64,000 bases of DNA from a bacterium (GTDB lineage: Bacteria > Patescibacteriota > Minisyncoccia > Phycocordibacterales > UBA12079): positions 27,901-91,900 of the forward strand of contig JAGYLJ010000001.1 of the NCBI GenBank assembly GCA_018401295.1. Reading direction: 5' to 3'. A model generated the notes under the pieces. The model searched no databases. It was given only the letters and a program-made list of their open reading frames with translations, and was not told the origin of the DNA. Positions 29,997 to 56,584 of this stretch are shown here, one piece after another (the stretch's first letter is position 1; the number at the start of each line of letters is the position of its first letter). The position numbers were made by a program, and so were the translations under genes.

Positions 29997-30020
29997 TTGT
30001 CTGCTCCGGCGGCAGGGCTC
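29997..30020. repeat. Island-distal att-type direct repeat (displaced copy of the tRNA-Asn 3' end)
   Basis: ttgtctgctccggcggcagggctc is identical over 24/24 nt to 56561..56584. Both flanking bases differ. Confidence 0.85.
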
Positions 30021-30024
30021 TTTC

Positions 30025-30110
30025 TTACAGAACAGTATACCTTTTGGATATTTTTTTCGTCTTCAACTCAAAAATATCTCAAAAGCTTTTCGAGTCCTGC
30101 TACGGAAAGA
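30025..30110. repeat. Island left-end sequence, duplicated at 27841..27932
   Basis: See the alignment under 27841..27932. Followed by a perfect 12-bp hairpin, aaaccccaatgc/gcattggggttt, at 30119..30148. Confidence 0.6.
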
Positions 30111-30344
30111 AAAAGTAAAAACCCCAATGCTCAATCGCATTGGGGTTTAACTTTCTCTAGCTCCCCGAACAGGTTCAGAACAAAAATATACAGGACACCG
30201 CAAGGTTTTTTGAGATACTTATAGATATGGATCGGAGGCAGACGGGTCGGTCTAAGCAAAAGTAAAATGGGACAAATGAGACACTTCCTGAGGTTTTTTA
30301 AAAAAATGAATATATTCTGTTTTTGTTATATAATAAGTTCTATT

Positions 30345-31205
30345 ATGGCTGAAAATGACAACAAAAGAAGATATTATTCTCAAAGAACAGGTAAAAGAAG
30401 TATAGAGATGGATTTAGATGCTTTAAAAGCTATTTTTTCTAATTTGTATACAGATTTTTTAAATAGGCAGTACTTTGATGAATATTTCGGTAAAGACTGT
30501 CCTGACGATCAAAGTCTAGGAATAGTTGGTGATCCACAAGCATATGTTCTTAGAAAATTAAGAAAAAATAATTTGTGGCCGATAGAAAAAAAATATTTAG
30601 AATATACCGAAGAAGATCTTTTTGATATGATCGAATTTCTTTTTGACCATATTTCTCACCCAATATTAGATAGTGATGCTCATTATCATGATTTTTGTAA
30701 TTGTGGTTATCATTATAAAAATTTTGATAAAAAATTAGCACAAATTGAATATGTAGAAAATATAAATGAATTTTTAAATGATTACGGGGATGGTTATGAA
30801 TTAAATCATAATGGAGAAATCTACTCGCTTTTAAAAGAAGAATTTCGTCCTTTATTAAGTGCTTCGATTCCGACAAATGAAACTGACAATGTAGAGAAAA
30901 AAGTTAGAAAAGCTGTTGATAAATTTAGACGATATGGTTCTACTTTAGATGAAAGAAGAGAATCTGTTAGAACCTTGGCTGATTGCCTTGAATATGTACG
31001 TTCAGATTTAAAAAAGGTGCTTACTAATAAAGATGACGGGGACTTGTTTAATATTGCAAATAATTTTGGTATTAGGCATCATAATGACAAACAAAAAACA
31101 AATTATGATCAGAATATTTGGTTAAGTTGGATGTTTTATTTTTATCTTTCAACAATCCACGCAAGTCTACGTCTTATAGATAAACAAAAGAATGTTAATA
31201 AATAG
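30345..31205 (+). CDS. Hypothetical protein (Abi-like stand-alone gene at the island edge)
   Basis: ATG at 30345 (MAENDNKRRYYSQRTG...) preferred over 30267. 'EDLFDMIEFLFDHISHP' and the C-terminal 'NNFGIRHHND' look like conserved strips. No family assigned. Confidence 0.45.
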   Translation: MAENDNKRRYYSQRTGKRSIEMDLDALKAIFSNLYTDFLNRQYFDEYFGKDCPDDQSLGIVGDPQAYVLRKLRKNNLWPIEKKYLEYTEEDLFDMIEFLFDHISHPILDSDAHYHDFCNCGYHYKNFDKKLAQIEYVENINEFLNDYGDGYELNHNGEIYSLLKEEFRPLLSASIPTNETDNVEKKVRKAVDKFRRYGSTLDERRESVRTLADCLEYVRSDLKKVLTNKDDGDLFNIANNFGIRHHNDKQKTNYDQNIWLSWMFYFYLSTIHASLRLIDKQKNVNK

Positions 31206-31206
31206 G

Positions 31207-32259
31207 TTATTTTATTAATTTAACTAAATCATCTTCTTTTTCATAGACTCGGAAGCGACCAGAAAGAATGCCGAGTCTATAATTTATACCTTCACTCATT
31301 AACCCCCAATTAGTTTCTTTTAGTTTCTCTTTTAATAATTTTTTAAGGTTAGCGGAGCTTTCATATTCATTTTCTGTTTTTGAATCTTCGAGAGTAAAAG
31401 ATAAAGAAACTATTCTATCCATATCTGGTTTATCAAATATAAGATTTGAGTAATGAGTATCTTTTAAAATACTTACAATAAATTCTTTAAATTGGGGAAT
31501 TGTAAGTTTCTTTAATTTACCAACCTTATCATATAGATCTTTATTCTTCTCTTTTTCTTTGTGTTTATCAATTATTTCAGATAGACCTTCCATTCTTCTC
31601 TTAAAATCTAAATATTTATATCCTTTTTCTTCACTTAAGCAAAAACGAGCTTTATCTTTTTCAAAGTTGGGATCGGGTTTTTCTTTTTTAGTTCTCAGAT
31701 CAAATTTATCTATAAATGAATGATCACACTTAGTACAAATATATTTTGTTATGGCAATTTTATTCTTAACCTTTTCTGGTTCACGTGTCATTTCAGAATT
31801 ACATTTTTCACAAAGAGTTGGTGTTGATTTCCAAACCTCACCATTATCAAAAACTCCTTTATTATGCAAACATTTATTTGGACAAACAAAAAAGAAAAGA
31901 ACTCTGTCGTCTTTGTCTCCCCAAAGATGTTTACTTTCAGACTCCATTAAGGAATTACAAGTGCCACATCTTATTAACTCTGGGGGAGGAGTTTCTTCTA
32001 ATAATCTGTCTCTTTCTTCATCTCTTTGCATCCATTTATTTATAACTTCTTCTTTCTTTAAATATTTTTCTCCTGTTATGAAATGTAATTGAAATTCAAA
32101 AAGAGACGCTAACTGTCTTTTTGAAAGGTTTTTACCTTTGTGTTTGGGAGGTTTGTGTTTTGGATCAAACCAAAGTTTTTCCATATCACGACAATAACTA
32201 ATAGTTGTTTTATCATATAAATCAGAATATTCTTGTTTTGGTTTGAGATATTTAATCAT
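31207..32259 (-). CDS. Double zinc-ribbon protein, unknown function (last gene of the TIR operon)
   Basis: 'CGTCNS...CPNKC' and 'CEKCNS...CTKCDH'. Its start overlaps the stop of the upstream gene by 4 nt. Confidence 0.5.
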   Translation of the reverse strand: MIKYLKPKQEYSDLYDKTTISYCRDMEKLWFDPKHKPPKHKGKNLSKRQLASLFEFQLHFITGEKYLKKEEVINKWMQRDEERDRLLEETPPPELIRCGTCNSLMESESKHLWGDKDDRVLFFFVCPNKCLHNKGVFDNGEVWKSTPTLCEKCNSEMTREPEKVKNKIAITKYICTKCDHSFIDKFDLRTKKEKPDPNFEKDKARFCLSEEKGYKYLDFKRRMEGLSEIIDKHKEKEKNKDLYDKVGKLKKLTIPQFKEFIVSILKDTHYSNLIFDKPDMDRIVSLSFTLEDSKTENEYESSANLKKLLKEKLKETNWGLMSEGINYRLGILSGRFRVYEKEDDLVKLIK

Positions 32260-33101
32260 TTTAATAAATAATCAAAAGTTATTTTTTTTTCTTTTATATC
32301 CATGTTTAATAATTGAAGACCTTCTAATGCTTCTGGATGACAATTCAATAAAGTTTTGTTACTCCCACAGTAACAAGATTGTTTCCCTTTGACTTTTTTC
32401 TTTTTTAATTGCTCTTTTATAGAATTAAATTTATTGATATTAGTTATCTCTGCGTCTTTTGCACAGAAAAACTTTATTGAATCTATTACTTCGAGTATTT
32501 TTGCAGAAGTTATTGGTCTTTGTATATTTTTGTATGATTGTATTATACCTAGGAAACCATGGTAATAATCTTTCCATAACCTCTTCCTTGTTTTTTCAAA
32601 ATAACTATTAGAATAAAAGAAAGGAATTAATAAATTATTTATGAAATTTCTTAAATTAAATTCATTTGGTAAATAGTACTCCTCTAATATCGGGGAACAT
32701 AAGCAAAGAGATGTGTCTTTGTTTATGTGTAGATCTGCTGGATTTATTTTATTAAATAAAGAAAAATTAATCATTCTATTACCGATTTCTTTAATTGGGG
32801 GGAATGTTGATTTTTCTTTAAAATACATTGGAATTTCAATTTCATATTGATCCTCTATTAGGTATTCATTAAAAAAATTTCCTGTTGGGTTTATTATTAT
32901 TTTCTTTGATTCTGTATTAAAACTTGCCTTAAAAATAAAATTTCCTTTTATCACATCAAAATCTTCTCCCTTAACTAAATTAAGTTCTGGGTAGTTTTTT
33001 GATAACCATTCAATTTCATCATCGTTAAGGTTTATTTTTTTAGTAGCCCCATTGTCCTGGGGTTTTAACCTCAATATTTTTTTCTCTTTGAGGGTACTCA
33101 T
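32256..33101 (-). CDS. Unknown protein with a C-terminal SEC-C-like metal-binding motif
   Basis: 'CYCGSNKTLLNCH' resembles the SEC-C knuckle. The internal 'LHINKDTSLCLC' strip is noted. Overlaps the TIR gene by 62 nt. Confidence 0.5.
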   Translation of the reverse strand: MSTLKEKKILRLKPQDNGATKKINLNDDEIEWLSKNYPELNLVKGEDFDVIKGNFIFKASFNTESKKIIINPTGNFFNEYLIEDQYEIEIPMYFKEKSTFPPIKEIGNRMINFSLFNKINPADLHINKDTSLCLCSPILEEYYLPNEFNLRNFINNLLIPFFYSNSYFEKTRKRLWKDYYHGFLGIIQSYKNIQRPITSAKILEVIDSIKFFCAKDAEITNINKFNSIKEQLKKKKVKGKQSCYCGSNKTLLNCHPEALEGLQLLNMDIKEKKITFDYLLK

Positions 33102-33615
33102 TACTTTTTTTAGGTATTAATTTAGAATTATTTGATTTATCAACTTTTTTAATAGATTCGTCTACCCATTTCCCAAAATTTTCATAACCATTGTCATTTA
33201 CCCAATCATAGGTATCGGCAATCTTATCTAATGTAATACTATCTTCTATTTCAACTTCATTGAAAGGGTTTTTACCTTTAGGAGTAGTTTTTTCATCAAG
33301 ACCTTTGATATTATGGATATAAACTCCTAATAAAGCATTGCCTTTCTTGTAGCTTTCTTCTATTTCGTATTTTACCCATTCTCTTTCTGATGTTTTTTCA
33401 CCAATTAATACTACGGTAAGCGAAGTACCATTTAGTTGATCTTTAATCCAATCCTCAACAACTTTTTTACCTTTTAATTTTAGTTTTTCCCAATCAGCAG
33501 AATCTATATAGCCAGCTGATTCTCTGTCTGGTTTTGTAATCCAATGATTTCTTACAACACCAATTCTTTTTGAATCTCCTTTGTGATAAAAACTAAAAAA
33601 TACTTTTCTGACCAT
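33040..33615 (-). CDS. TIR-like domain protein (DUF1863/MTH538, ThsB type)
   Basis: 'KVFFSFYHKGDSKRIGVVRNHW', 'TVVLIGEKTSEREWVKYEIEESYKKGNALLGVYIHNIKG' and 'KGKNPF' match the ThsB-type TIR pattern. Confidence 0.8.
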   Translation of the reverse strand: MVRKVFFSFYHKGDSKRIGVVRNHWITKPDRESAGYIDSADWEKLKLKGKKVVEDWIKDQLNGTSLTVVLIGEKTSEREWVKYEIEESYKKGNALLGVYIHNIKGLDEKTTPKGKNPFNEVEIEDSITLDKIADTYDWVNDNGYENFGKWVDESIKKVDKSNNSKLIPKKSNEYPQREKNIEVKTPGQWGY

Positions 33616-33619
33616 ATTG

Positions 33620-34012
33620 TTATATTAAATAAATTACTAATAAATGCGCCATTAAAATACCTCCGTAAAAAATATTTAATGTTTTTGAGAATACTGCACA
33701 GGACCAATTACAATTGCATTCAAAACTTTTAGTGCTCATAGAAAAGTCAACTTTTTCATCTTCTAAATTTCTGACATAATCAAATACTTTAATAAAAAGA
33801 CGTTCTTTGAATAAGTAAAATCCATCAAGTATCCAGAAAAAGATCAATATTACAGAGGATATATATAAATAATCAGTATTTGATTCCTTAAATACCAAAG
33901 CAAAAAGAGCTCCCACCAATGTTATACACCAACCTTTCAAAAGAAATGAATTATGACCCATTCGGTTTATTGCTCCCTGTATAAATTCTAGGTGTTTGAT
34001 TTTATTGTTCAT
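33620..34012 (-). CDS. 130-aa three-TM membrane protein (candidate effector)
   Basis: ATG at 34012 (MNNKIKHLEF...) sits 4 nt after the DUF2188 stop. TM helices 'LLKGWCITLVGALFALVF', 'YISSVILIFFWILDGFYLF' and 'IFYGGILMAHLLVIYLI'. Confidence 0.55.
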   Translation of the reverse strand: MNNKIKHLEFIQGAINRMGHNSFLLKGWCITLVGALFALVFKESNTDYLYISSVILIFFWILDGFYLFKERLFIKVFDYVRNLEDEKVDFSMSTKSFECNCNWSCAVFSKTLNIFYGGILMAHLLVIYLI

Positions 34013-34016
34013 AAGT

Positions 34017-34262
34017 TTAATGTTTTTTGTCTTTGGGTGGGCAAGGATCTTTTCCAGGGGAAACGGTATCACTATCCCTAATAGGGCCTCCGTTTGGTTT
34101 ATGTATCCTAACCTCACCACCTCCAGAATTAGCTGATAATTCTTTTGCTATTTTTTCGGCTTCTTTTTGAGTACTTGCTGTAGCTGATGCACGGTCACCT
34201 CCGGCTTTTTTGATGTTCCATTTATCTGATCCTTTAGGATTTGTGACATGATAATTTGCCAT
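34017..34262 (-). CDS. DUF2188 domain protein
   Basis: 'YHVTNPKGSDKWNIKKAGGDRASATASTQKEAEKIAKELS' fits the DUF2188 pattern. Confidence 0.6.
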   Translation of the reverse strand: MANYHVTNPKGSDKWNIKKAGGDRASATASTQKEAEKIAKELSANSGGGEVRIHKPNGGPIRDSDTVSPGKDPCPPKDKKH

Positions 34263-34278
34263 ATTTTTATTTTATTAA

Positions 34279-34944
34279 TTAATAATCTTCTTTTATTGGT
34301 TCAAAAGTATAATCATCTTGAGGTTTCATTTTTATAACATCAATCACTTTTCCAAAAATTTTAAAGTCTTCTTTCATTATTATCGGGCTGTATCCTTTTG
34401 CTTCTGGATTAAGAATCGTAGCATTTTCTGTAAAATTTATTTTTTTAACTACTGCCATATCTCCTATAATTGCAACTATTCTATCGTTTTCAGTAACATT
34501 TTCAGTAACTTTAACAAGAACGTAATCTCCATCATTGATTCCTGCGTCTTTCATACTCCCGCCAATAGCTTTTATAGCAACAAATTTGTCTTTATCATTA
34601 ATAAATTTTTTATCAATAGTGATATGTTCGTCATATGTTTTTTGAGCAAGAATATTTACATTATCACATCCTGCTGAAGCAAAAACCGGAAGAGTTACTG
34701 TAGATGTTATGTTCTCTTTTTCTTCTATCAATTCAATGTTTCTTTTTTTATACCGATTTCTTTTTATAAGTCCTTTTTTTTCAAGCGATTCAAGATATTG
34801 AGTAACACTTCTCAAAGATCGCACTTTAATTAAAGCCCTAAGTTCTTCTGTGGTCGGGGATTCTCCGTGTTCGGTAATAAAGGTTTTAATAACAGCAAGA
34901 ACCTCTTGTTGTCTTTGTGTTAAAATTCTTTTTCTTCGTTCCAT
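34279..34944 (-). CDS. LexA-like S24-peptidase repressor
   Basis: LexA-type wHTH 'LTQRQQEVLAVIKTFITEHGESPTTEEL', an Ala-Gly site in 'FASAGCD', Ser 'IGGSMKDAGINDGDYVLV' and Lys 'AVVKK'. ATG at 34944 preferred to the TTG at 34980. Confidence 0.8.
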   Translation of the reverse strand: MERRKRILTQRQQEVLAVIKTFITEHGESPTTEELRALIKVRSLRSVTQYLESLEKKGLIKRNRYKKRNIELIEEKENITSTVTLPVFASAGCDNVNILAQKTYDEHITIDKKFINDKDKFVAIKAIGGSMKDAGINDGDYVLVKVTENVTENDRIVAIIGDMAVVKKINFTENATILNPEAKGYSPIIMKEDFKIFGKVIDVIKMKPQDDYTFEPIKEDY

Positions 34945-34993
34945 TCCTATTATTTTACTATATAGGGTTTGGAAAGGCAAGTTTATTTCATAT

Positions 34994-35213: not shown

Positions 35214-35261
35214 ATTTGCTTACATAAAGATGGAAACATTATAAATTAAGTAATAAAAAAT

Positions 35262-36542
35262 ATGACTATTAAAAAGAAAATTGTTTGGCACACAGAACAA
35301 AGAAAAGTTTCTGAATTAGTGCCTTATTCTAAAAATCCACGAATTTTGTCAGATAAACAACGTGAGGATTTAGAAGCAAGTATCAAAAAATTTGGACTTG
35401 CAGAAATACCAGCCATTAATACAGATAATCTTATTATTGCTGGTCACCAAAGGCTAAAGATATTATTGACGTTAGGAAAAGGTAACGAAATTATTGATGT
35501 TCGAATTCCTAATAGAAAATTAAAAAAAAAAGAATTTGAGGAATACCTACTTAGAAGCAACCGAAATCGAGGTTCTTGGGAATATGAGCTTCTTAAAGAA
35601 TTCGATATAGATTTCTTGTTAGATATTGGATTTGACGACACGGACTTGTTAAATATTTGGGATGATGTTTTAGAAATAGAGGATGACGATTTTGAAATTG
35701 ATAAAGAAATTGATGAAATACACGAAACAGATATTCAGGAAGGAAATTTTTTCCAACTAGGAGACCACTTTTTGTATTGTGGCGATAGTACTGATTTATC
35801 AGTAATTCAAAAATTAGTTGGGAAAAATAAGATAGATATGATCTATGGAGATAGTCCATATAATATTTCTTTAAATTACGACAAAGGGCTTGGAGGAAAA
35901 AGTCACTATGGTGGAAATGTGAGAGATAATTTATCTGATTCAGATTTTAAAGATTTTTTGAAAACAGTAATTTCAAACACTCTTTCTGTTGCAAAAAAAG
36001 ATGCTCATATATTTTATTGGGCAGATTCTCGGTATGTCGGAATGCTTCAAGATATCTACAAAGAATTATATATTAATTACAAGAGAACCTGCTTGTGGAT
36101 TAAGAACGGAATGAATTTGACCCCTCAGATAAGTTTTAATAAGTGCTATGAAAATTGTTTGTATGGAATAATCGGAGAGCCTTATATTGCAGATTTTCCA
36201 AAAAACTTAAATGAAATCTTAAACAAAGAAGTTGGTACTGGTAACGCAACCATTGATGACATTGTTGATCTTTTTGATATTTGGTTAGCAAAAAGATTAC
36301 CGGGATCAGAAATGGAACATCCAACTCAAAAACCTGTGACATTACACGAAAAACCCTTAAAGCGTTGTACAAAGATTGGAGATTGTGTCTTGGACCCTTT
36401 TGGAGGAAGTGGGTCCACAATGTTGGCGTGTGAACAAATGAAAAGGAAATCTTTTTTAGTCGAAAAGAGTCCAATATTTTGTCAGTTAATAATAAATAGA
36501 TATGAAAAAGAAACCGGAATCAAAACAAAGAAAATCAACTAG
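35262..36542 (+). CDS. ParB-like nuclease domain fused to a DNA methyltransferase (phage type)
   Basis: N-terminal 'PYSKNPRILSDKQ...IIAGHQRL' (ParB/Srx fold); 'IYGDSPYN' motif IV variant; C-terminal 'EHPTQKPV..LDPFGGSGST'. Confidence 0.8.
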   Translation: MTIKKKIVWHTEQRKVSELVPYSKNPRILSDKQREDLEASIKKFGLAEIPAINTDNLIIAGHQRLKILLTLGKGNEIIDVRIPNRKLKKKEFEEYLLRSNRNRGSWEYELLKEFDIDFLLDIGFDDTDLLNIWDDVLEIEDDDFEIDKEIDEIHETDIQEGNFFQLGDHFLYCGDSTDLSVIQKLVGKNKIDMIYGDSPYNISLNYDKGLGGKSHYGGNVRDNLSDSDFKDFLKTVISNTLSVAKKDAHIFYWADSRYVGMLQDIYKELYINYKRTCLWIKNGMNLTPQISFNKCYENCLYGIIGEPYIADFPKNLNEILNKEVGTGNATIDDIVDLFDIWLAKRLPGSEMEHPTQKPVTLHEKPLKRCTKIGDCVLDPFGGSGSTMLACEQMKRKSFLVEKSPIFCQLIINRYEKETGIKTKKIN

Positions 36543-36549
36543 TTTACAA

Positions 36550-37293
36550 ATGAAGTACGGCGATACCTTTTTGCTTGGGGAACATTTACTTGTTTACGGA
36601 AGTGCGACTGATGAAGAATTAATAAGGAAAGTTCTGAAAGATAAAAAAATTAACGCAACGATTTGTGATCCCCCTTACGGGGTAAGTTATGTTGCAAGTA
36701 AAGAAAATTTCCAAACTTTAGCTAAAAGAAAACATATTGTTGGTGATGAAATTACTTCAGATAGTGAGTATATAGAATTCAGTAAAAAATGGTTAAGTCC
36801 TGTTATTCCATTCTTGAGTAAAGATAACTCAGTGTATATCTTCAATTCAGACAAGATGATATTTGCTCTACGAACAGCAATGCTGGAATTAGGTTTTAAA
36901 TTTTCTCAATTACTAATTTGGGTAAAAGACCGTGCTGTAATTGGAAGATTAGATTATTTACCTCAACATGAGTTAATTGCTTATGGTTGGTATGGAAGAC
37001 ATCATTTCAGAAAATCAAAAAGTAAATCGGTTTTAGTTTTTCCGAAACCAAACAGGAGCAGACTTCATCCGACGATGAAACCTGTCGGGTTACTTAGACA
37101 TATCATTCTAAATTCAACGAAAATTAACGAAACGGTATATGACCCATTTGCTGGTAGCGGAACAACTTTGATTGCTTGTGAGCATACCAAAAGAAAAGCG
37201 ATCGTTATTGAATTAGATAAGGAATATTGCAGAACAATAATTAAAAGATGGGAAATATTATCAGGTAATAAAGCAGAAAAATATGAGAACTAA
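36550..37293 (+). CDS. N4/N6 DNA methyltransferase
   Basis: 'ICDPPYG', 'HPTMKPVGL' and 'YDPFAGSGTT'. ATG at 36550 sits just after the upstream stop. Confidence 0.8.
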   Translation: MKYGDTFLLGEHLLVYGSATDEELIRKVLKDKKINATICDPPYGVSYVASKENFQTLAKRKHIVGDEITSDSEYIEFSKKWLSPVIPFLSKDNSVYIFNSDKMIFALRTAMLELGFKFSQLLIWVKDRAVIGRLDYLPQHELIAYGWYGRHHFRKSKSKSVLVFPKPNRSRLHPTMKPVGLLRHIILNSTKINETVYDPFAGSGTTLIACEHTKRKAIVIELDKEYCRTIIKRWEILSGNKAEKYEN

Positions 37294-37696
37294 ACAAGAA
37301 AGAGAAATATTGTTGAAACAGTTAGGAAAAACACCTGTAATTCAAATCGCTTGCGAAAAATCAAGTGTTCCTAGGTCAACATATTACAGATGGAGACAGT
37401 CGAGTAAAAAATTCAAAGAAGATTCTGATAAGGCATTAAGTGAAGGAAAGAAAATGGTTAACGATCTTGCAGAGTCTCAACTTATAACAGCTATTAAAGA
37501 TAGGAATTTCCAAGCAATTAAATTTTGGTTAACAAGTCATCATAAAGACTACAATAACAAATTGGAAATTACTCACAATGATAGAAATAAAGAATTATCT
37601 GAATCTCAAAAAGAACTTATTAAAAAAGCTCTTGAGCTAACTTCTGCTCATAAAAAACCAGAAATAAAAGAAAAACATGAGGACAACAGAGAATAA
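37283..37696 (+). CDS. HTH protein, terminase small-subunit-like
   Basis: 'IACEKSSVPRSTYYRWRQ' is an HTH. Sits directly upstream of TerL and overlaps it. Confidence 0.5.
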   Translation: MRTKQEREILLKQLGKTPVIQIACEKSSVPRSTYYRWRQSSKKFKEDSDKALSEGKKMVNDLAESQLITAIKDRNFQAIKFWLTSHHKDYNNKLEITHNDRNKELSESQKELIKKALELTSAHKKPEIKEKHEDNRE

Positions 37697-39116: not shown

Positions 39117-39139
39117 GTAAAAGAAATTAGAATGTAGAC

Positions 39140-44482: not shown

Positions 44483-44483
44483 T

Positions 44484-45272: not shown

Positions 45273-45273
45273 A

Positions 45274-46164: not shown

Positions 46165-46166
46165 TT

Positions 46167-47312: not shown

Positions 47313-47318
47313 AATATT

Positions 47319-48296: not shown

Positions 48297-48310
48297 AAAT
48301 AATTAAATAT

Positions 48311-51217
48311 ATGAAATTCAACGAACAATATACAATAGAAAACTACATAATTAAGTTTTTAGAAAAAGAGCTTGGTTTTGAATATATAAAACCGCAGGAT
48401 TTTGCAAAACTGCGGGAATTTGAGAATGAATATATTATTTCTTCTCTTTTACTTGATGCTATAAAAAAGATAAACAATATATCTGAAGAAGAAGCAAAAT
48501 CTGTTTTGAGAGAAGTTAAAAAAATAGATAACAATGAAGATTTTCTTAAAGCTTTTCGCAACGGAATAAATCTTAAAGATTCTGAAACTGGAAAAATGCG
48601 AGATTATTTTATTGTTGACTTTGATAATTTAGAAAACAATCAGTTTGTAGTTACGAATCAATTTTATTTTGAAGGTAATTCTGAAAATATAAGAACTGAT
48701 GTTTTGGTTTTTTTGAACGGTTTGCCCGTTGTTAATATAGAAGCAAAAAGTCCAACGGCTTCAAGTAATGTAAATTATGCAAATGCAGTTGGACAGATTA
48801 AAAGATATGAAAGGAATGCTTTTAAACTTTTCTGGCCGAATTGTTTTAATATTGCAACTGATGGATTAGAAACTGTTTACGGTGCTACTTATTCTCCCGT
48901 TCAATATTTTTTGAGGTGGAAAGAGGAGGAGAAAAACAAAAAATATGATGATGAACTCGAGAATACTTTGTTTGCTTTATTAGAGCAAGAAAGATTATTG
49001 GATATAATTAGAAACTTTATTTTATTTGAAAAAGAAAAAGAGCAAACTATTAAAAAAATTGCCCGTTATCAACAACTTCGAGCAACAAATAAGATTATAG
49101 AAAGAGTTAAAGATGGAAATACAAAACGAGGACTTATTTGGCACACTCAAGGATCAGGAAAATCCTTGACGATGTTTTTCACTGCTTGGAAATTGAGATT
49201 TAATAAAGAATTAAAAAATCCTAAGATATTTATCTTAGTTGATAGAATTGATCTTGATGATCAAATTTATGAAACTTTTATAAATTGTGGCGGTGAAAAT
49301 GTCGTTAGGGTAAATTCTCGTCTTGACCTCGAGAAAAAAATAAAATCATCAGAGAGAGGTATCTTCATTTCAACTATTCAGAAATTTTCTGAATTAGGAA
49401 ATGATGTAAAAAATCTTGATGAAAATATAATTGTGCTTTCGGATGAAGCTCATCGAGATAATGAAGGAATTTCGGCTATTAATCTTCGCGACTCAATGGA
49501 GAATGCCTTTTTTTTCGGGTTTACAGGAACACCGATTGATAGGATTACCTTAAACACTCATAGAAATTTTGGAGCAGAAGGAGAAAGATATCTTGATTAT
49601 TATTCAATTAAACAAGCGATTGATGACGGAACAACTCTACCTGTTACCTATGAGGCGAGATTGTCAAAGTTTTTTATTGATGAAGAAAAATTGGATAAAC
49701 AATTTGAGGAATTAACTAGAGATTTATCTAGTAAAGAAAAGGAATCAATCTCTAAAAAGTACGGAAAGAAAGAAGCTATTGTAAAACTTGATAGAAGAAT
49801 GCAAGCCGTGGCTCAGGATATTGTTGAACATTATAAATTATATGTTGAACCAGCTGGATTTAAAGCTCAGGTTGTTTGTTATGACAGAGAGGCTACAGCC
49901 AAGTATAAAGAACTATTAGACCAACTCGTACCTAAAGAGTGGTCGGCGGTTATTTATTCTGCTGGTGATCCAAATACAAGTCCCGAAGATTTACAAAAAT
50001 ATAACACTACTAAAGCAAAGAGAGAAAAATTAATAAATGAATTTAAAGATCCAAATAGCCCATTAAAGTTTTTGTTGGTGTGCGATATGCTTTTAACTGG
50101 TTTTGATGCTCCAATTGAACAAGTGATGTATTTAGACAAACCACTTTGGGATCACAATCTTTTGCAAGCTATTGCCCGAACAAATAGAATCTATCCAAAC
50201 AAAGGAGCAGGGAAAATTATTGATTACTATGGAATCACAAAAAGTTTGCATTTAGCTTTAAAATTTGATGAAAGTGAAATTGATTCAGTAATGATAAATA
50301 TCGACAAACTTAAAGAAGAATTTAAGGATGTCCTTGATGAGATTATGGATATTTTTGTAAATGTAAATATCGAAGATCCTTCAATTGAGAATCTTCGTCG
50401 TTGTTTGAAAATTTTTGCTGAAAATAATGAGAAGCAAAAATTCTTCCGTGAAAAATATGGTAGGTTGAAACTTTTATTTGAAGTTTTATCCCCTGACCCT
50501 TTTCTTAAAGGATTTGTGAGAAAATTTGAATGGTTAACTAGTGTTTATATTGCTTTCAGTAAGGAGTTTGGAGAAAGTGCTTATGATTCAGAAGTTCTAG
50601 CAGAATATGGAGAAAAAGTTAAACAACTAATTCAGGATAGAGTTGACTATGAAGGAATAACAAAGAACTTTAGAGAATTAAATATAAATGATTTATACGT
50701 AATGGAGAGACTCAATAAAATGGATGATGAAGAAAAAGCATTGAATTTAGAAAAAATGTTAAAACAAGAAATTTCTTTAAACATTGATACAAATCCAGCT
50801 TATAAAAAGTTTAGTGAGAGATTGTCTGCCATTAGAAAAGAGTTTGAAAAAAATCAGATTGATTTATCTGAAAGAATTAAACGATATCAAAAATTACTTG
50901 GGGATATAAAAAAGAAAGGTGATGAAGCTAAAGAACTTGGATATTCTCTCAAAGAATATGGTCTTTTCGTTATGTCTGAAGAGTTTATTAAGGGGGATAA
51001 AAATATAATAAGAGAATTTATTCAAGATATGTCTAAAAGAATTGAGAATGTTCTTGACGAAGGTTGGCAGGAATCTTCAAAACGAGATGAATTTTTGAAA
51101 GAAGTTAAAAGAATTATTCAAGAATTAGTTCTAAAAGAATATAGAGAACAAGTTGAGGTTTTGGACTTTCATAAGTATTTAAATCGTTTAGTTGATTTAG
51201 TAATTAAAAAGTTTTAA
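48311..51217 (+). CDS. hsdR: Type I R-M restriction subunit HsdR
   Basis: N-terminal nuclease 'DVLVFLNGLPVVNIEAKS', helicase motifs 'HTQGSGKSLTM', 'VLSDEAHR', 'FGFTGTP' and 'QAIARTNR'. Confidence 0.9.
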   Translation: MKFNEQYTIENYIIKFLEKELGFEYIKPQDFAKLREFENEYIISSLLLDAIKKINNISEEEAKSVLREVKKIDNNEDFLKAFRNGINLKDSETGKMRDYFIVDFDNLENNQFVVTNQFYFEGNSENIRTDVLVFLNGLPVVNIEAKSPTASSNVNYANAVGQIKRYERNAFKLFWPNCFNIATDGLETVYGATYSPVQYFLRWKEEEKNKKYDDELENTLFALLEQERLLDIIRNFILFEKEKEQTIKKIARYQQLRATNKIIERVKDGNTKRGLIWHTQGSGKSLTMFFTAWKLRFNKELKNPKIFILVDRIDLDDQIYETFINCGGENVVRVNSRLDLEKKIKSSERGIFISTIQKFSELGNDVKNLDENIIVLSDEAHRDNEGISAINLRDSMENAFFFGFTGTPIDRITLNTHRNFGAEGERYLDYYSIKQAIDDGTTLPVTYEARLSKFFIDEEKLDKQFEELTRDLSSKEKESISKKYGKKEAIVKLDRRMQAVAQDIVEHYKLYVEPAGFKAQVVCYDREATAKYKELLDQLVPKEWSAVIYSAGDPNTSPEDLQKYNTTKAKREKLINEFKDPNSPLKFLLVCDMLLTGFDAPIEQVMYLDKPLWDHNLLQAIARTNRIYPNKGAGKIIDYYGITKSLHLALKFDESEIDSVMINIDKLKEEFKDVLDEIMDIFVNVNIEDPSIENLRRCLKIFAENNEKQKFFREKYGRLKLLFEVLSPDPFLKGFVRKFEWLTSVYIAFSKEFGESAYDSEVLAEYGEKVKQLIQDRVDYEGITKNFRELNINDLYVMERLNKMDDEEKALNLEKMLKQEISLNIDTNPAYKKFSERLSAIRKEFEKNQIDLSERIKRYQKLLGDIKKKGDEAKELGYSLKEYGLFVMSEEFIKGDKNIIREFIQDMSKRIENVLDEGWQESSKRDEFLKEVKRIIQELVLKEYREQVEVLDFHKYLNRLVDLVIKKF

Positions 51218-51219
51218 AA

Positions 51220-51792
51220 ATGGAGAAAAAAATAACTCTAAAAAATAAAAAAATATCCTATACTCTCAAAAAAAGTAAAAGGGCGAGAAGAATGAGATTG
51301 GCTGTTTATTGTGATGGTGCAGTAGTGGTGACAACACCTTTTGATTTAAAAGAGAATATCGTTGAAAGATTTTTGAGAGAAAAATCTCAATGGGTGTTTT
51401 CAAAATTAGATTTTTTTAAACAATTTGAAGATAAATCTATTACTAAATATAGTCATGAAGATTATTTAAAATTTAAAAAAGATGCTTATATTTTAGCGGA
51501 AAATAGATTGGAATACTTTAATAAAACATATAAACTTAAGTACAATAAGATAAGTATAAAAAATCAAAAAACCCGTTGGGGCAGTTGTTCTAAAAAAGGT
51601 AATTTAAATTTTAATTATAAAATTGTTTTACTTCCAAAAAATCTCGCTGATTATATTATTGTGCATGAGTTATGCCATCTAAAAGAATTCAATCATTCAA
51701 AAAAGTTTTGGAATTTGGTTTCAAAAGTGATGTCAGATTATTTAGATATTCGGAAAAATCTTAAAAAAAACGGTTATCAATTTTATAAATAA
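51220..51792 (+). CDS. YgjP-like (DUF45/M48-type) metallopeptidase
   Basis: 'TRWGSCS' and 'IIVHELCHLKEFNHSKKFW' (HExxH). A common hsdR neighbour. Confidence 0.8.
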   Translation: MEKKITLKNKKISYTLKKSKRARRMRLAVYCDGAVVVTTPFDLKENIVERFLREKSQWVFSKLDFFKQFEDKSITKYSHEDYLKFKKDAYILAENRLEYFNKTYKLKYNKISIKNQKTRWGSCSKKGNLNFNYKIVLLPKNLADYIIVHELCHLKEFNHSKKFWNLVSKVMSDYLDIRKNLKKNGYQFYK

Positions 51793-51797
51793 AAACT

Positions 51798-52556
51798 ATG
51801 TCAGAATATTATAAATCACAGAGAAAAGATGCGTATAATTACGGGGGGAAGCAGTGGAAACTGAGTCGTTCTAAGATAGATTTGTTTCGGCAATGTCCTC
51901 GTTGTTTTTATATTGATAATAAACTGGGGACGAAGAGACCTCCAGGTTTTCCTTTTGCTATAAACAGTGCTGTCGATACTCTACTTAAAAAAGAATTTGA
52001 TATACATAGAGCAAAAGAAGAACAACATCCTTTGCAGAAACAATATGGTGTAGATGCTAGACCAGTAGCTCATGAGGAGTTGGATATTTGGAGGGAGAAT
52101 TTTAAAGGTGTTCGTTATGAAGATAAAAAAACTGGTTTTGTAATCACAGGGGCTATTGATGATCTTTGGATAAATAGTAAGGGAGAATATATTGTTGTCG
52201 ATTATAAAGCGACAGCTAAAGATGAGCCAGTTGTAGAATTAAATAAGGAATGGCAAGACGGATATAAAAGACAAATGGAAATTTATCAGTGGTTGTTGAG
52301 AAAAAATGGGTTGAAAGTTTCTAATACAGGATATTTTGTTTACTGCACAGGGAAGTTAGATCGGAAAGCTTTTGACGGAAAGATTGATTTTGATGTGAAT
52401 TTGATTGCCTATGAAGGGAATGATAGTTGGGTGGAAGGTATAATTAGGGAAATTAAAAAATGTTTAGATAGTGAAAAAATTCCAGAGTCAGGAAAAGACT
52501 GTGATTATTGTGATTATTTTAATACCAGGTTGGGTCATGAGAAAAATAAACTATGA
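51798..52556 (+). CDS. PD-(D/E)XK nuclease with Cys clusters (Cas4/RecB-like)
   Basis: N-terminal 'CPRCFY', core 'GAIDDLW...YIVVDYKAT', 'QMEIYQWLL' (QxxxY) and C-terminal 'CDYCDY'. Confidence 0.65.
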   Translation: MSEYYKSQRKDAYNYGGKQWKLSRSKIDLFRQCPRCFYIDNKLGTKRPPGFPFAINSAVDTLLKKEFDIHRAKEEQHPLQKQYGVDARPVAHEELDIWRENFKGVRYEDKKTGFVITGAIDDLWINSKGEYIVVDYKATAKDEPVVELNKEWQDGYKRQMEIYQWLLRKNGLKVSNTGYFVYCTGKLDRKAFDGKIDFDVNLIAYEGNDSWVEGIIREIKKCLDSEKIPESGKDCDYCDYFNTRLGHEKNKL

Positions 52557-53287
52557 AAAAGGATTATAAAGTAAAAATTGATGATAATTATCACTCTATG
52601 GATGGAAGTAGAATAATGTCAGATAGATCTTATGTTACTCTTGAGGAAGCGATTGAAAGGTGTAAAGAGCTTACAATAAGAAGTTTAGGAGAGATGTATG
52701 AAAAGGGAATATCTCCAGAAAAACTTTCGGCTCAGTGGGCAATGTTTGGAGATGATCCATTTATAATGGGAGTAGAGGGGAAAGTACCTTTTTCTGCAAG
52801 AGTTTTTATTAATAGAACTATTTGTGAGAAGGTAATTAAAGATATGGAAATAAAAGAAGAAAATAGAAAAAATATGTTTGAAAAATCAGTTGAGATAGCT
52901 ACGAAAGCTCATGCTGGTCAGGTTGATAAAGCTGGAGCTGAATATATTCAGCATCCTATTCGGCTTGCAGAGAAAGTGGAATCGTTAGAAGAGAAAACTG
53001 TCGCTATGTTGCATGATGTTGTTGAAGATAGTGATTATTCTTTTGAAGATTTGAAAAAAGAAGGTTTTAGCCAAGAAATAATTGATGCTGTTGAGTGTTT
53101 AACGAAAAGAGAGGGAGAAGAATATTTTAGTTTTATTAAACGAGTTAAACGAAATCATTTAGCTACAGCAGTAAAAATTGCAGATTTAAAGGATAATTCA
53201 AATCTTGAAAGGATACCTAATCCAACACAGGTGGATATAGATAGAGTTGAGAAGTATAAAAAAGCTTTGGTTTATCTTGAAGATTAA
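52553..53287 (+). CDS. HD-domain hydrolase of the RelA/SpoT (small alarmone hydrolase) type with an unknown ~105-aa N-terminal domain
   Basis: 'KAHAGQVDKAGAEYIQHPIRLAE' and 'AMLHDVVEDS'. ATGA overlap with the upstream gene. Confidence 0.7.
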   Translation: MKKDYKVKIDDNYHSMDGSRIMSDRSYVTLEEAIERCKELTIRSLGEMYEKGISPEKLSAQWAMFGDDPFIMGVEGKVPFSARVFINRTICEKVIKDMEIKEENRKNMFEKSVEIATKAHAGQVDKAGAEYIQHPIRLAEKVESLEEKTVAMLHDVVEDSDYSFEDLKKEGFSQEIIDAVECLTKREGEEYFSFIKRVKRNHLATAVKIADLKDNSNLERIPNPTQVDIDRVEKYKKALVYLED

Positions 53288-53437
53288 AAAGATTTAAAAA
53301 TAATTTTGATTGTATAAAATAAATTGATTTTTTTTGAGGAGGTGACTGAAAATTTGTGAAGAAATTTTCAAGATTAGAAATCTATCTACCAGAAGGCGGG
53401 TTTTAGATATTAAATTATTAATTAATTAAAAAATATT

Positions 53438-54301
53438 ATGAAAGTTCAAAACATAAAAGATAAACTAACAAGAAAAAACATTTTTATTGTTTGTCTATTA
53501 CTTTTTCTTATCTTTGTCTTTTCAAAATTTGTTATTAATTTTGATAGCAATACCTCGATTAATTATAGTGAGCTTAGCAAAAATAAAACTATAAATAAAA
53601 ATCTAACTTATGATTTAGCACAATACGAATTTAACACATATAAAGGAGACTTTGTTGAATGGGGAGGAAGAGTTTTTATAGAACCTGATTACGACAGTAA
53701 AGGGGTTTATTTACAAATTTTTTATAAAGATATATCGGAAAAACCTTTTATTGTTTTTTTAAATAATCCTAGCTTTAAAATCAAAGATGGTGATTATGTA
53801 ATTATAAAAGGTTGGGTTATAGATATTTATGAAGGTAAAAACCTTTTAGGCGGGATAATCAATGGTATAAATATTTTAGCTGATTCTATAGATATAACTA
53901 AAAGATCTAACGCTATTGCTCCAGCAGAAAAAACTTTAACAATTAACGAAACTAAAACACAAAATAATTTTTCAGTTACTGTTGAAAAGGTAGAAATAGC
54001 AAAAGAAGAAACGAGAATTTATTTAAGTGTTAAAAATTCTAGCCAAGACAAAGTAAGTTTTTATACTTATGACTCTAAGATAGTTCAAGGTGACAAACAA
54101 ATAGAGATTAAAAATATATTTGAGAATGAAGAAGAATTACCAAACGAATTTTTACCTAATGTAGAGATGGAGGGGGTTATTATATTTTCACCAATAGATT
54201 ATACTAAGAAATCTTTAATACTTTATTTAGATACACCATATTCTCGTGATTTTCGTCTTGATTTTGAAGAATTCATTTTTGATATTAATTTATTTAATTA
54301 A
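53438..54301 (+). CDS. Membrane-anchored protein with a DUF4352-like Ig-fold C-terminal domain
   Basis: N-terminal TM. 'FSVTVEKVEIAKEETRIYLSVKNSS.DKVSF...EGVIIFSPI' fits the pattern. Confidence 0.4.
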   Translation: MKVQNIKDKLTRKNIFIVCLLLFLIFVFSKFVINFDSNTSINYSELSKNKTINKNLTYDLAQYEFNTYKGDFVEWGGRVFIEPDYDSKGVYLQIFYKDISEKPFIVFLNNPSFKIKDGDYVIIKGWVIDIYEGKNLLGGIINGINILADSIDITKRSNAIAPAEKTLTINETKTQNNFSVTVEKVEIAKEETRIYLSVKNSSQDKVSFYTYDSKIVQGDKQIEIKNIFENEEELPNEFLPNVEMEGVIIFSPIDYTKKSLILYLDTPYSRDFRLDFEEFIFDINLFN

Positions 54302-54306
54302 AAATT

Positions 54307-55161
54307 ATGAATAAACAAAAGGTAAAAAATATTTTGATTTTGTTTGTTGGTTTTTTGGGTGGGGTGTTATTTTTGTTTGCTATTGGATTAAATGATTTCC
54401 AAGTAGTTCAAAATACTCAAACAGCCCTTGTTGTTGAATCACAAAAAGAAAATATAGAGGTTAAACCTACACAAATTGAGAAAAATAATAATGAGGAAAA
54501 TCTTGAAATTTTTTATCCTGTTGTAAAAGTTGTTGATGGGGATACTGTGACTTTAAACATTGATGGTCAAAAACAAACTCTTCGTCTAATTGGAATAGAC
54601 ACTCCAGAAACTGTTGATCCAAGAAAACCAGTGCAGTGTTTTGGAGTAGAAGCGTCAAATAAAGCTAAAGAAATTTTAATAGGACAGAAAGTAAGAATAG
54701 AAAAAGATTCAAGTCAGGGCGAATTAGATAAATATGGAAGATTACTTGCTTATGTTTTTCTAAAAGACGGAACTAACTTTAATAAAATGATGATAGACCA
54801 AGGTTATGCTTATGAGTATACTTATGATTTACCATATAAATATCAAACAGAATTTAAGTTGGCAGAAGATACAGCAAGAATAGAGAAAAGGGGATTGTGG
54901 GCTGAAGATACTTGCAACGGAGATGCCACCAAAGCTCAAGAAATACCTGTTGTAGAACAAAATGATCCTATAACGCCATCTAACTCAACAACCATTTCAA
55001 AACCGATTAAAAGTGATTGTAGTAGTAATGTATATAATTGCACTGATTTTAAAACTCATACTGAGGCACAAGCCACTTATGATTATTGTGGCGGTGTAAA
55101 TAATGACATTCATAGGTTAGATAATGATAAAGATGGAGAAGCTTGTGAAAGTTTACCTTAA
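54307..55161 (+). CDS. Secreted thermonuclease (SNase) with a C-terminal Excalibur calcium-binding domain
   Basis: 'VVDGDTVTL....LRLIGIDTPE', 'YGRLLAYVF' and 'GYAYEY'. C-terminus 'CTDFKTHTEAQATYDYCGG....LDNDKDGEACE'. Confidence 0.85.
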   Translation: MNKQKVKNILILFVGFLGGVLFLFAIGLNDFQVVQNTQTALVVESQKENIEVKPTQIEKNNNEENLEIFYPVVKVVDGDTVTLNIDGQKQTLRLIGIDTPETVDPRKPVQCFGVEASNKAKEILIGQKVRIEKDSSQGELDKYGRLLAYVFLKDGTNFNKMMIDQGYAYEYTYDLPYKYQTEFKLAEDTARIEKRGLWAEDTCNGDATKAQEIPVVEQNDPITPSNSTTISKPIKSDCSSNVYNCTDFKTHTEAQATYDYCGGVNNDIHRLDNDKDGEACESLP

Positions 55162-55245
55162 AATAAGATGTTTTTTCGGTGAATTTTTGAAATTCATAAA
55201 TTAAATCTAACCCAAAGTCTTAATAGTATTAAAGAGATAAATGTT

Positions 55246-56205
55246 TTATTTGGTAGAGTGTTGTTTACTAGCCCCTTCTTCTGGGTTACTAGATTCTGTT
55301 CCTGAAGCTGGAGGGATTGAGTCTGATAAATCTTCTTGGATATTATTAATCTCTTTTTTATTTATATCACCAATTTCTTTAACTGTAGCCTTTTTAACTT
55401 TATAGATAGGGGTTGCAATTTTAAGAAAAATTTCCATTGTATACATATGAAATTTGACACCGTGTTCAGAAATTTCTTTTATTAATTCTGGTTTTGGTCC
55501 GATTGTTTTTTTATTTATTTTTAACCACCAATCTTCTTTATTGTCGTTTGTTACAAAAATAATAGGTTTTTTGTCCTCTAATGTTTTAACCATTTCCATT
55601 ATTTGATACCACCCTATCCAGTCACCGTACGGGTAGTTTTTTTTGATATCTTTATATCCAGGTGGTATCTCTTTTGAGATTCTTGCGCTCCCTTTATTTT
55701 CAATAGACTGGATATCTTCACAAGGGGATCCCACTTTACCCTTAAAAAGGCTATCTATTTTATTTCTTATTGGATCGCTATTAAACCAATCAGGATGTTT
55801 TTTTTCTGTTTTTTCTATTTCCTTTATAACTATTTCTATTGATTTTGAAATTTTACTTAATAAATTATCTATATTTAAAAAAGGGTGTTGCTGTTGATCT
55901 TTTTTGATTTCATTTGAAATTGAAGCAAATCCCCTAGATAATTTTTCTGAAGTATTTTTGTAAAAAATCGATTGATCCTCAATGATTTTAAGTCTTTTTC
56001 TTTGGTATTCTAACGCAAATTGATGAGGTAACCATATTCTATTTCCCATTTTTTCAAGTATATTTAAAAACTCGTTTCGAGTTTCTGTCGAATACTTATA
56101 TAAGTTTAAAAGTATATTTGCATCAAATATAAAAATAGCATCTTTCCATAGTTTGTTTTTTTCAGTAGTACTTAATGAATAATATTCTTTGAAAGTTTTT
56201 TTCAT
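55246..56205 (-). CDS. PIN-like domain protein (DUF4935 type)
   Basis: N-terminal 'IFIFDANILLNLYKYS' and 'IWLPHQFALEYQRKR', later 'IIFVTNDNKEDWW'. Confidence 0.55.
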   Translation of the reverse strand: MKKTFKEYYSLSTTEKNKLWKDAIFIFDANILLNLYKYSTETRNEFLNILEKMGNRIWLPHQFALEYQRKRLKIIEDQSIFYKNTSEKLSRGFASISNEIKKDQQQHPFLNIDNLLSKISKSIEIVIKEIEKTEKKHPDWFNSDPIRNKIDSLFKGKVGSPCEDIQSIENKGSARISKEIPPGYKDIKKNYPYGDWIGWYQIMEMVKTLEDKKPIIFVTNDNKEDWWLKINKKTIGPKPELIKEISEHGVKFHMYTMEIFLKIATPIYKVKKATVKEIGDINKKEINNIQEDLSDSIPPASGTESSNPEEGASKQHSTK

Positions 56206-56211
56206 GTTATT

Positions 56212-56481
56212 TTATAGACGGACATTAATCCATGTCCAAATATCTCGATGCATCCATCCTTGATGAGCTCCGTTTACTATTTGTGTTATGAAAATTCTAT
56301 CATTAATATCTAAGTGAACTCTAAGATTTTCATATATTTGACCAGAAGTCCATGTTGTGGAAACAAACCAAACTGAGTCTAATCCATTATCTCTTATAAA
56401 GTCATAACGTCTTAATGCAGAATAAAGACTGTTGTAGTCTTTCCCTGTTTTATTAAGATCATAAGTAATTAAGTAAACCAT
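56212..56481 (-). CDS. Small protein with a Cas2/VapD-like beta-alpha-beta-beta-alpha-beta pattern (tentative)
   Basis: 'MVYLITYDL...YNSLYSALRRY...SVWFVSTT...QIYENLRVHL...DRIFITQI' parallels the VapD/Cas2 layout (compare VapD 'MYAIAFDL'). Sits 6 nt upstream of the PIN-like gene. Confidence 0.3.
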   Translation of the reverse strand: MVYLITYDLNKTGKDYNSLYSALRRYDFIRDNGLDSVWFVSTTWTSGQIYENLRVHLDINDRIFITQIVNGAHQGWMHRDIWTWINVRL

Positions 56482-56510
56482 TTTTGAATTATATCATAAT
56501 TTACAAAACA

Positions 56511-56550
56511 TAAGAAAACCGACCCGATCCCCAGACGGGGACGGGTCGGT
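56511..56550 (-). terminator. Rho-independent terminator following tRNA-Asn (lies inside the island end)
   Basis: Minus strand: accgacccg-tcccc-gtct-gggga-t-cgggtcggt followed by tttctta. Confidence 0.6.
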
Positions 56551-56560
56551 TTCACCAAAA

Positions 56561-56584
56561 TTGTCTGCTCCGGCGGCAGGGCTC
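56561..56584. repeat. att-type direct repeat at tRNA-Asn (last 17 nt of the tRNA + 7 nt of flank)
   Basis: Identical to 29997..30020. Confidence 0.85.

Follow-up and report, generated by a model that had tools for sequence, protein, structure and literature searches.

Which enzyme could have placed a 26.5-kb island rich in defence genes at the 3' end of a transfer RNA (tRNA) gene, if the only recombinase that the island carries is a large serine recombinase (LSR)? The question is raised by a 64,000-nt stretch of contig JAGYLJ010000001.1 (assembly GCA_018401295.1; hereafter the window), which comes from a bacterium of the Patescibacteria, or candidate phyla radiation (CPR). An earlier interpretation, the sequence-only reading, had described perfect 24-bp repeats around the island and had left two options, namely that a tyrosine integrase had been lost and the island immobilised, or that the integration chemistry was unusual. 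Here we interpret positions 30021-56560 as one LSR-driven integrative defence element, inserted at the tRNA-Asn gene of a CPR chromosome, and assign this interpretation a probability of roughly 0.78.

Direct repeats at the tRNA-Asn gene

The ends of the island are marked by the following features:

~29973-29996: native terminator-like hairpin of the left flank, adjoining attL
29997-30020, plus strand: attL, the distal copy of the 24-bp core, an exact repeat that abuts the chromosomal left flank
56519-56560, minus strand: right arm of the element, a hairpin with a U-run that includes the conserved GGGTCGGTTTCACCAAA (fold energy -33.7 kcal/mol, z -6.0)
56561-56584, plus strand: attR, the tRNA-proximal copy of the 24-bp core, an exact repeat
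56567-56640, minus strand: intact tRNA-Asn(GTT), the integration target, with CCA not encoded

The 24-mer TTGTCTGCTCCGGCGGCAGGGCTC has exact copies at 29997-30020 and 56561-56584 and no others in the window. There are still only two copies when up to 3 mismatches are allowed, where none is expected by chance (100 shuffles), and when up to 7 are allowed. The adjoining bases are unlike on both sides (29996 t and 56560 a; 30021 t and 56585 g). Both ARAGORN and Rfam place an intact tRNA-Asn(GTT), the sole tRNA of the window, on the minus strand at 56567/56568-56640, and from these coordinates the right copy of the 24-mer is made up of the last 17-18 nt of the tRNA and 6-7 nt of trailer. The sequence-only reading was therefore right about the perfect repeats with unlike flanks and about the tRNA-Asn(GTT) 3' end and flank in the right copy, and the dispersed repeat that it had feared did not appear. 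Within the full set of retrieved loci, every occurrence of the 24-mer is at a tRNA-Asn junction (L001, L002 and L004; related loci carry L numbers throughout).

An empty site in a distant relative

Related genomes were found by scanning GTDB species representatives with the PBP protein encoded in the right flank, and the nearest PBP relatives are metagenome-assembled genomes (MAGs) of Patescibacteria with at most 62% identity. The order of tRNA-Asn and then the PBP gene is kept in L003, L004 and L008. In L003, a Patescibacteria MAG, the DNA abutting the tRNA-Asn 3' end is homologous to window positions 29878-29996, and it has a 27-nt block and an A/T-flanked hairpin in common with the left flank of the island. 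The left flank thus joins tRNA-Asn directly in L003, and compared with that genome the whole interval is inserted DNA. The predicted empty site is present here, in a distant relative. Proteins exactly matching those of the flanks are recorded in one Logan run only (SRR14300308), where the junctions are occupied too; the Logan contig L001 stops 26 nt past attL and matches the occupied junction, so it offers no evidence of mixed occupancy.

The tRNA-Asn of the window (...GGAGCAGACAA) lacks an encoded CCA, as do several other element-occupied tRNA-Asn genes, and the tRNA-Asn at the L003 empty site does encode it (window 56561-56567 against L003 719-724). From these alignments, the trailer at occupied tRNA-Asn sites looks element-derived. 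The left flank also holds a 25-nt motif, GGTYCGAAYATGGKGAAAAGTCTCG, which follows the stop of a NUDIX gene at 29879-29903 and has a second copy, differing at 3 positions, 6 kb upstream (23937-23961). It is identical in L003 (653-677), beside the tRNA-Asn empty site; it could have a regulatory function, represent a fragment of a former tRNA or belong to a small family of dispersed repeats.

A large serine recombinase tied to tRNA genes

Island proteins were annotated with Pfam, PHROG and PADLOC, and RNAs with Rfam. The recombinase is encoded as follows:

41295-42674, plus strand: LSR of 459 aa with Pfam Resolvase, Recombinase and Zn_ribbon_recom domains

All three domains are well matched (PF00239, E 3e-23; PF07508, E 2e-11; PF13408, E 3e-9), the protein falls to the integrase family phrog_95, and it has the YARKS43T catalytic motif and a DRLSRN motif. 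Its nearest solved structure is SprA of SPbeta (9dxh), with low sequence identity to characterised LSRs (E 5e-11 to SprA). The gene is located 11 kb and 14 kb from the island ends, with its own tRNA-Asn 13.9 kb downstream. Among the 25 open reading frames (ORFs) of at least 80 aa in the island, no match to Phage_integrase was found at E<=0.01, in agreement with the earlier claim of one large serine recombinase and no tyrosine integrase. Intergenic gaps in the island do not exceed 400 nt, which leaves no room for a decayed tyrosine integrase.

The relatives of this LSR were assembled into 100 loci of 45-89% identity, consisting of 20 IMG/VR contigs and the best 80 of at least 528 metagenome stretches. 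Each reaches no more than 10 kb from the LSR gene, and many come from host contigs of 100-600 kb. The closest island, in FLOH01000029, has a different cargo around an LSR 89%, a GmrSD enzyme 98% and a repressor 94% identical to those of the window. A tRNA lies downstream of the LSR in 39 of the 100 loci, and in every one of these (39/39) the first one met downstream is encoded on the other strand, its 3' end pointing towards the LSR. Summed over all 100 loci, the 601 kb upstream of the LSR contain 0 tRNAs and the 473 kb downstream contain 60. In seven loci no more than 87-183 nt separate the LSR stop codon from the 3' end of the tRNA, too little to hold another integrase. In a neighbour-joining tree of 97 LSRs the tRNA isotype is clade-specific, with tRNA-Asn in all nine cases (9/9) of the window's own clade and separate clades for Trp, Gln, Ser and Lys/Glu. 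The clade as a whole is large and CPR-associated.

On these grounds the LSR is probably the integrase of the island, and an integrase has probably not been lost. Of the two options left by the sequence-only reading, the unusual chemistry is the better supported, in the form of an LSR clade that adjoins tRNA 3' ends in a fixed orientation and with clade-specific isotypes. The same reading had taken the long identical core as an argument against a serine recombinase. LSRs act by 2-bp staggered double-strand cuts and subunit rotation, for which extended homology is not needed. The argument does not hold, since only the 2-bp crossover is short and the identity around it can be long. More broadly, we think it likely that tRNA genes (Asn, Gln, Trp, Ser, Lys and Glu) have become the special target of a CPR-wide LSR lineage whose attP copies the tRNA 3' end.

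A conserved right arm beside the tRNA

The right arm consists of a strong hairpin followed by a U-run, and hence can serve as a replacement terminator for tRNA-Asn. Its GGGTCGGTTTCACCAAA is kept beside tRNA-Asn in L004, L104, L106, L111, L114, L120, L121 and L123, and the consensus of the arm (~GGAC.GGG..CGGGTCGGTTTCACCAAA...TCT) is kept among elements with differing host tRNA sequences. The arm is present neither in the L003 empty site nor at attL of the window. All LSR clades have a GGGTC-type motif at a distance of ~24-27 nt from the end of the tRNA, and this fixed distance hints at a crossover near the tRNA terminus. With a crossover at that place, the 17 nt of attL that resemble the tRNA would belong to the element as its own half-site and would not be displaced host DNA.

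Near-copies of the arm occur in other settings. In the Paceibacterota MAG L004 (9070-9166), 41 nt of arm and core are identical to the window, as is the entire tRNA-Asn; its PBP is 51% and its flanking proteins are 51-65% identical, and an SNase homologue lies near tRNA-Asn. No LSR was found in the 9 kb to the left of this tRNA-Asn; the site belongs either to a relative of the element that has decayed or to one whose cargo is very large. In L149 (12930-12995 and 14910-14975; ~36 nt) and L088 (16044 and 16211; 17 nt), the gap between LSR and tRNA contains near-copies of the attR arm and tRNA end, which look like remnants of repeated integrations at one site. The 24-mer has no match in IMG/VR viral contigs. 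The conserved arm GGTCGGTTTCACCAAA, tried there as a marker of attP, gave 14 matches, all of them chance matches without a tRNA or LSR.

Proposed mechanism

In the mechanism that we propose, the element's own LSR (41295-42674) would catalyse site-specific integration, by recombination between attP of the element and attB of the host at the tRNA-Asn(GTT) 3' end. In attP, a segment of 24 bp would match exactly the final 17-18 nt of the tRNA and its trailer, and because of this copy the tRNA would remain intact at attR, with a 24-bp partial copy at attL. The right arm would bring a new intrinsic terminator for tRNA-Asn. The crossover may take place near the tRNA 3' terminus, induction may be of the SOS type via the repressor, and transfer may proceed by terminase-dependent packaging into the capsids of a helper phage.

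Alternative explanations

Several observations weigh against the proposal of a single LSR-driven element. The empty site comes from a genome whose flanking proteins are only 62-81% identical to those of the window. The island does not stand out in composition, with a GC content of 29.7% against 33.0% and 31.3% in the flanks and a tetranucleotide correlation no lower than that of flank segments; the composition check proposed in the sequence-only reading was thus uninformative, and a distinct composition is a trait that integrative elements can do without. Scanning the att sites for dyad symmetry gave no clear symmetry and a weak peak at a palindromic GC. For this reason the crossover is placed only to within the 24 identical bp, and the palindromic GC is an unlikely crossover dinucleotide. 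In FLOH01000029, neither a tRNA nor an att-like sequence was found within 20 kb on either side of the LSR. No second family member shows both att copies within the 10-kb flanks, because the related loci end 10 kb from the LSR. Searches of these flanks for far-end repeats (exact matches of at least 11 nt, and 20-mers with 3 mismatches) gave nothing convincing: a 15-mer in L141 is a doubtful att copy in which the tRNA terminus is not kept, and 11-mers in L114 are at chance level. Nor were terminal repeats, as expected of excised or circular forms, seen in the 100 loci. Finally, copies of the island's PD-(D/E)XK nuclease gene with 90-94% identity sit among the core genes of other CPR genomes without an LSR, so that part of the cargo may be of host origin.

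This last point would suit a composite interval, in which an LSR element beside tRNA-Asn was joined to separately acquired or resident DNA, for example the PDDEXK-HD genes or the left TIR operon, and which would not be one mobile unit. The wholly different cargo of the window and FLOH01000029, the tandem att-like remnants in L149 and L088 and the flank-like composition are also in its favour. We nevertheless regard it as unlikely, given that the core has only two copies with no degenerate internal att or arm, that the left flank joins tRNA-Asn directly in L003, and that PDDEXK recurs at varied positions inside other LSR elements (L124, L136, L142 and L158); cargo exchange in fixed slots is moreover the normal pattern of the family, for which separate integrations are not needed. 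Alternatively, a tyrosine integrase may have integrated the island and later been deleted, leaving fossil repeats, an immobile island and the LSR as an unrelated passenger. A tRNA 3' end with a core of at least 20 bp is the classic signature of these enzymes, the LSR does not lie at an island end, and serine integrases (S-Ints) rarely use t(m)RNA genes, with 4.9% of mapped cases versus 44.5% for tyrosine integrases (Y-Ints) (PMC7192596). Yet the island has neither a Phage_integrase match nor the intergenic space for a remnant, and its repeats are still perfect. The right junction has the arm that is typical of the LSR family, and the tie of the clade to tRNA 3' ends (39/39 in orientation, seven directly adjoining, isotype following clade) belongs to the LSR itself, which makes the deleted integrase quite improbable. 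An integrase encoded elsewhere could instead mobilise the island in trans, with the LSR serving for inversion or resolution, given that 64 kb of the genome are in view and that the case for LSR recombination is built on sequence. This would leave the family-wide link between LSR and tRNA 3' ends unexplained, and the full architecture with Recombinase and Zn-ribbon domains is typical of integrases and not of resolvases or invertases; we hold it to be very improbable. There is next to no chance that the 24-mer is a random or dispersed repeat and that no island exists. The indistinct composition is the one point in its favour, against which stand a chance expectation of 0, two copies even at 7 mismatches, one copy that is a tRNA 3' end, the empty site in L003 and the restriction of the 24-mer to tRNA-Asn junctions in the retrieved loci.

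Relation to known systems

The LSR-driven element shares much with tRNA islands and prophages that have tyrosine integrases, such as P4-like elements and mycobacteriophages with Int-Y. These also insert at a tRNA 3' end, carry repeats of the tRNA end, keep the tRNA intact by element-borne sequence and hold accessory or defence cargo, and their common cores are typically 25-76 bp (PMC8092301). The island is unlike them in that its only recombinase is an LSR. In LSR domain architecture it resembles SPbeta (SprA), phiC31, Bxb1, A118 prophages, SCCmec (CcrAB) and the Vibrio PLE. Those elements target protein-coding genes or repeats, whereas the island targets a tRNA gene. PLEs are anti-phage satellites that bear an LSR (PMC9638900). 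The variable defence slots beside integrase and att, and the packaging genes without visible capsid or tail genes, recall P4/P2 hotspots and phage-inducible chromosomal islands (PICI); the island is unlike phage satellites in that no satellite hallmark proteins were identified in it and that its host belongs to the CPR, and packaging genes alone are suggestive only.

Two precedents bear on the combination of a serine recombinase with long repeats or a tRNA target. In SCCmec, with its serine recombinases CcrAB, the direct repeats are 15-18 bp long and lie at the 3' end of a conserved gene. Its recombinase genes are centrally placed, and it often carries a type I restriction-modification (R-M) system. 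The island is not an SCC-type element: the 3' end of rlmH (orfX) and CcrAB or CcrC are found there, tRNA-Asn and a single distant LSR here, and the likeness is functional only. The small serine recombinase of phiRSM uses tRNA-Ser, and is alike in that a serine-family recombinase has a tRNA gene as attB. It differs in being a small, resolvase-like enzyme of filamentous Ralstonia phages without Recombinase and Zn-ribbon domains, while the enzyme of the island is an LSR of 459 aa, in a CPR element that also carries methylase, terminase and LOOT genes. By analogy, the SCCmec and phiRSM precedents soften the surprise. The phiRSM group has been cited as site-specific S-Core integrases (PMC7192596).

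Use of a tRNA gene as target counts as a hallmark of tyrosine integrases, and here a whole LSR clade has a consistent, clade-specific tRNA association. Mageeney et al. 2020 described S-Ints as "not known for targeting tRNA genes", treated their use of t(m)RNA genes as unreported until then, computed 14 such cases out of 297 and asked for proof (PMC7192596), and the LSR survey of Durrant et al. gives protein-coding targets only, with tRNA not mentioned (PMC10083194). No report of this LSR clade, or of a link between LOOT and LSRs, was found in the literature searched. If confirmed, the target range of serine integrases, which are favoured tools of genome engineering, would be wider, and CPR bacteria, which have resisted genetics, would offer conserved and predictable attB sites. 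The long repeat would then reflect copying of the tRNA end and not recombination chemistry. The family would also serve to spread defence systems (type I, II and III R-M, Shedu, TIR, GmrSD and CBASS) among reduced-genome Patescibacteria, and the orphan LOOT RNA would gain a genomic context.

Conserved core and LOOT RNA

Besides the LSR, these genes of the island recur in its relatives:

34279-34980, minus strand: LexA/CI-like S24 repressor (Pfam Peptidase_S24 and LexA_DNA_bind; PHROG transcriptional repressor)
35262-36542, plus strand: ParB-N6/N4 DNA methyltransferase (Pfam, PHROG)
36502-37293, plus strand: second methyltransferase (Pfam, PHROG)
37283-37696, plus strand: TerS-like helix-turn-helix (HTH) protein (weak PHROG match, E 7e-4)
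37677-39116, plus strand: terminase large subunit TerL (phrog_38, E 2e-84)
41050-41181, minus strand: LOOT RNA (RF03000), divergent from the LSR gene with a gap of 113 nt

About half of the related loci have the order methyltransferase, (second methyltransferase), TerS, (TerL, sometimes duplicated), LOOT and LSR. Homologues of the two methyltransferases lie upstream of the LSR in 52/100 and 44/100 loci, and a copy of the repressor that is 94% identical stands in the same position in L103. A query of IMG/VR with the methylase yielded one further locus, L207, of the same architecture and with no tRNA in range. As judged by gene order, the predicted core of the family comprises an S24 repressor, a ParB-methylase, a TerS-like protein, LOOT and LSR, with a second methylase and TerL in some members; the repressor is likely to be the switch of the element. 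Tandem TerL paralogues (two, 42-47% identical to TerL of the window) precede the LSR in the IMG/VR loci L083, L084, L089, L091, L092 and L102, and L104, L114, L120 and L129 have the TerS-like protein only, with no TerL.

No capsid, portal, tail or lysis genes were seen in the island, where phage annotation is limited to the TerS-like protein and TerL, and it does not qualify as an intact prophage. Capsid, portal and tail genes were not seen in the 10-kb flanks of the relatives either. Because the gene order of the core recurs while such genes are not seen, what the sequence-only reading had called a phage remnant is better described as the conserved core of an element family than as debris. 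Two readings of the element fit: it may resemble a satellite that lacks a capsid, or it may derive, as a stable form, from a lineage of prophages.

The LOOT RNA of the window is full-length (model positions 1-121) and scores 76.8 bits against a gathering threshold of 46.4 in Rfam. With a purpose-built covariance model, LOOT was found in 37 of 100 sources, in 24 of them within ~270 nt of the LSR gene: 20 copies are divergent and 94-267 nt upstream, and four are on the same strand ~65 nt downstream. It also stands beside the LSR in L103 (9754-9887), L117, L124, L129, L141, L146 and others. Rfam describes LOOT (RF03000) as a small RNA only, and no statement on its function or on a recombinase link was found in the literature searched. 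A role as guide RNA was rejected, the longest match to att regions being 6.6 nt versus 6.6 nt in mismatched locus pairs. It is conceivable, if doubtful, that besides the tRNA-specialised lineage LOOT would be a working part of integration or excision, for example as a directionality regulator or cofactor, and that the elements would be capsid-less satellites shuttling defence among ultra-small bacteria.

Defence cargo in three variable slots

The cargo of the window copy comprises at least five defence modules, and it occupies three variable slots, at the left end, between TerL and LSR, and between LSR and attR:

30267-31205, plus strand: AbiJ-like/PDC-S32-like protein of 312 aa, left-end cargo (phrog_20667, E 2e-67; PADLOC PDC-S32, E 2e-9)
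31207-34120, minus strand: left cargo operon (Pfam, PADLOC), made up of the next four genes
31207-32259, minus strand: Zn-ribbon protein of 350 aa
32256-33101, minus strand: E2-like protein
33040-33615, minus strand: ThsB-TIR/PDC-M50B protein
33620-34120, minus strand: PDC-M50A-like protein
39140-40894, minus strand: GmrSD-type restriction enzyme (HEC-05), TerL-LSR slot (Pfam, PADLOC)
42737-51792, plus strand: type I R-M cargo with a YgjP-like gene, LSR-attR slot (Pfam)
42737-44482, plus strand: HsdM
44484-45272 and 45253-46164, plus strand: two ORFs between hsdM and hsdS
46167-47312, plus strand: HsdS
47319-48296, plus strand: third ORF, between hsdS and hsdR
48311-51217, plus strand: HsdR
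51220-51792, plus strand: YgjP-like metallopeptidase, after HsdR
51798-55161, plus strand: PD-(D/E)XK nuclease, HD protein, DUF5643-like protein and SNase with an Excalibur domain (Pfam)
55246-56205, minus strand: PIN_8 protein, tRNA-proximal cargo (Pfam PIN_8, E 4e-60)
56212-56481, minus strand: 89-aa partner of the PIN_8 protein

The modules listed earlier (TIR operon, GmrSD, type I R-M, PIN_8 with its 89-aa partner, and a weak AbiJ-like edge gene) were largely recovered. The match of the 312-aa protein to Pfam AbiJ_NTD4 is weak (E 1e-4, under the curated cut-off), and the PIN_8/89-aa pair (55246-56481) matches phrog_1090. The three ORFs in the hsdM-hsdS and hsdS-hsdR gaps encode 262, 303 and 325 aa and have no Pfam or PADLOC assignment except one weak match to PD-Lambda-5_A. 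Relatives have SNase, type I or III R-M, a reverse transcriptase or Mrr in the TerL-LSR slot, and type II or III R-M or Shedu in the LSR-attR slot. The Cas4-like PD-(D/E)XK gene (51798-52556) is unusually conserved: homologues of about 70% identity or above number more than 8000 and come from many CPR lineages. Its neighbours in core-gene contexts are dnaE, gltX and ribosomal protein genes, and it occurs inside LSR elements as well; in FLOH01000029 the PDDEXK-HD pair also follows the cargo behind the LSR.

The 350-aa Zn-ribbon protein belongs to a family of 214 homologues, nearly all from CPR and none annotated. Its weak Zn_ribbon_recom match raised the idea of a recombinase, which was ruled out, because a Resolvase domain is missing and the genes that accompany it are those of TIR or CBASS systems. 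In the window it stands with the E2-like protein beside ThsB-TIR/PDC-M50, and in FLOH01000029 (L185 8000-11907) the two stand beside a CBASS SMODS and HORMA pair, the 350-aa proteins of both islands being 86-87% identical. The pattern suggests that one module, acting as effector or as regulator, is exchanged between sensor systems. Just beyond the left cargo of FLOH01000029 (L185 11910-14316) lie a second, longer LSR of 564 aa and an HTH_17 protein, an arrangement that suggests tandem serine-integrase elements.

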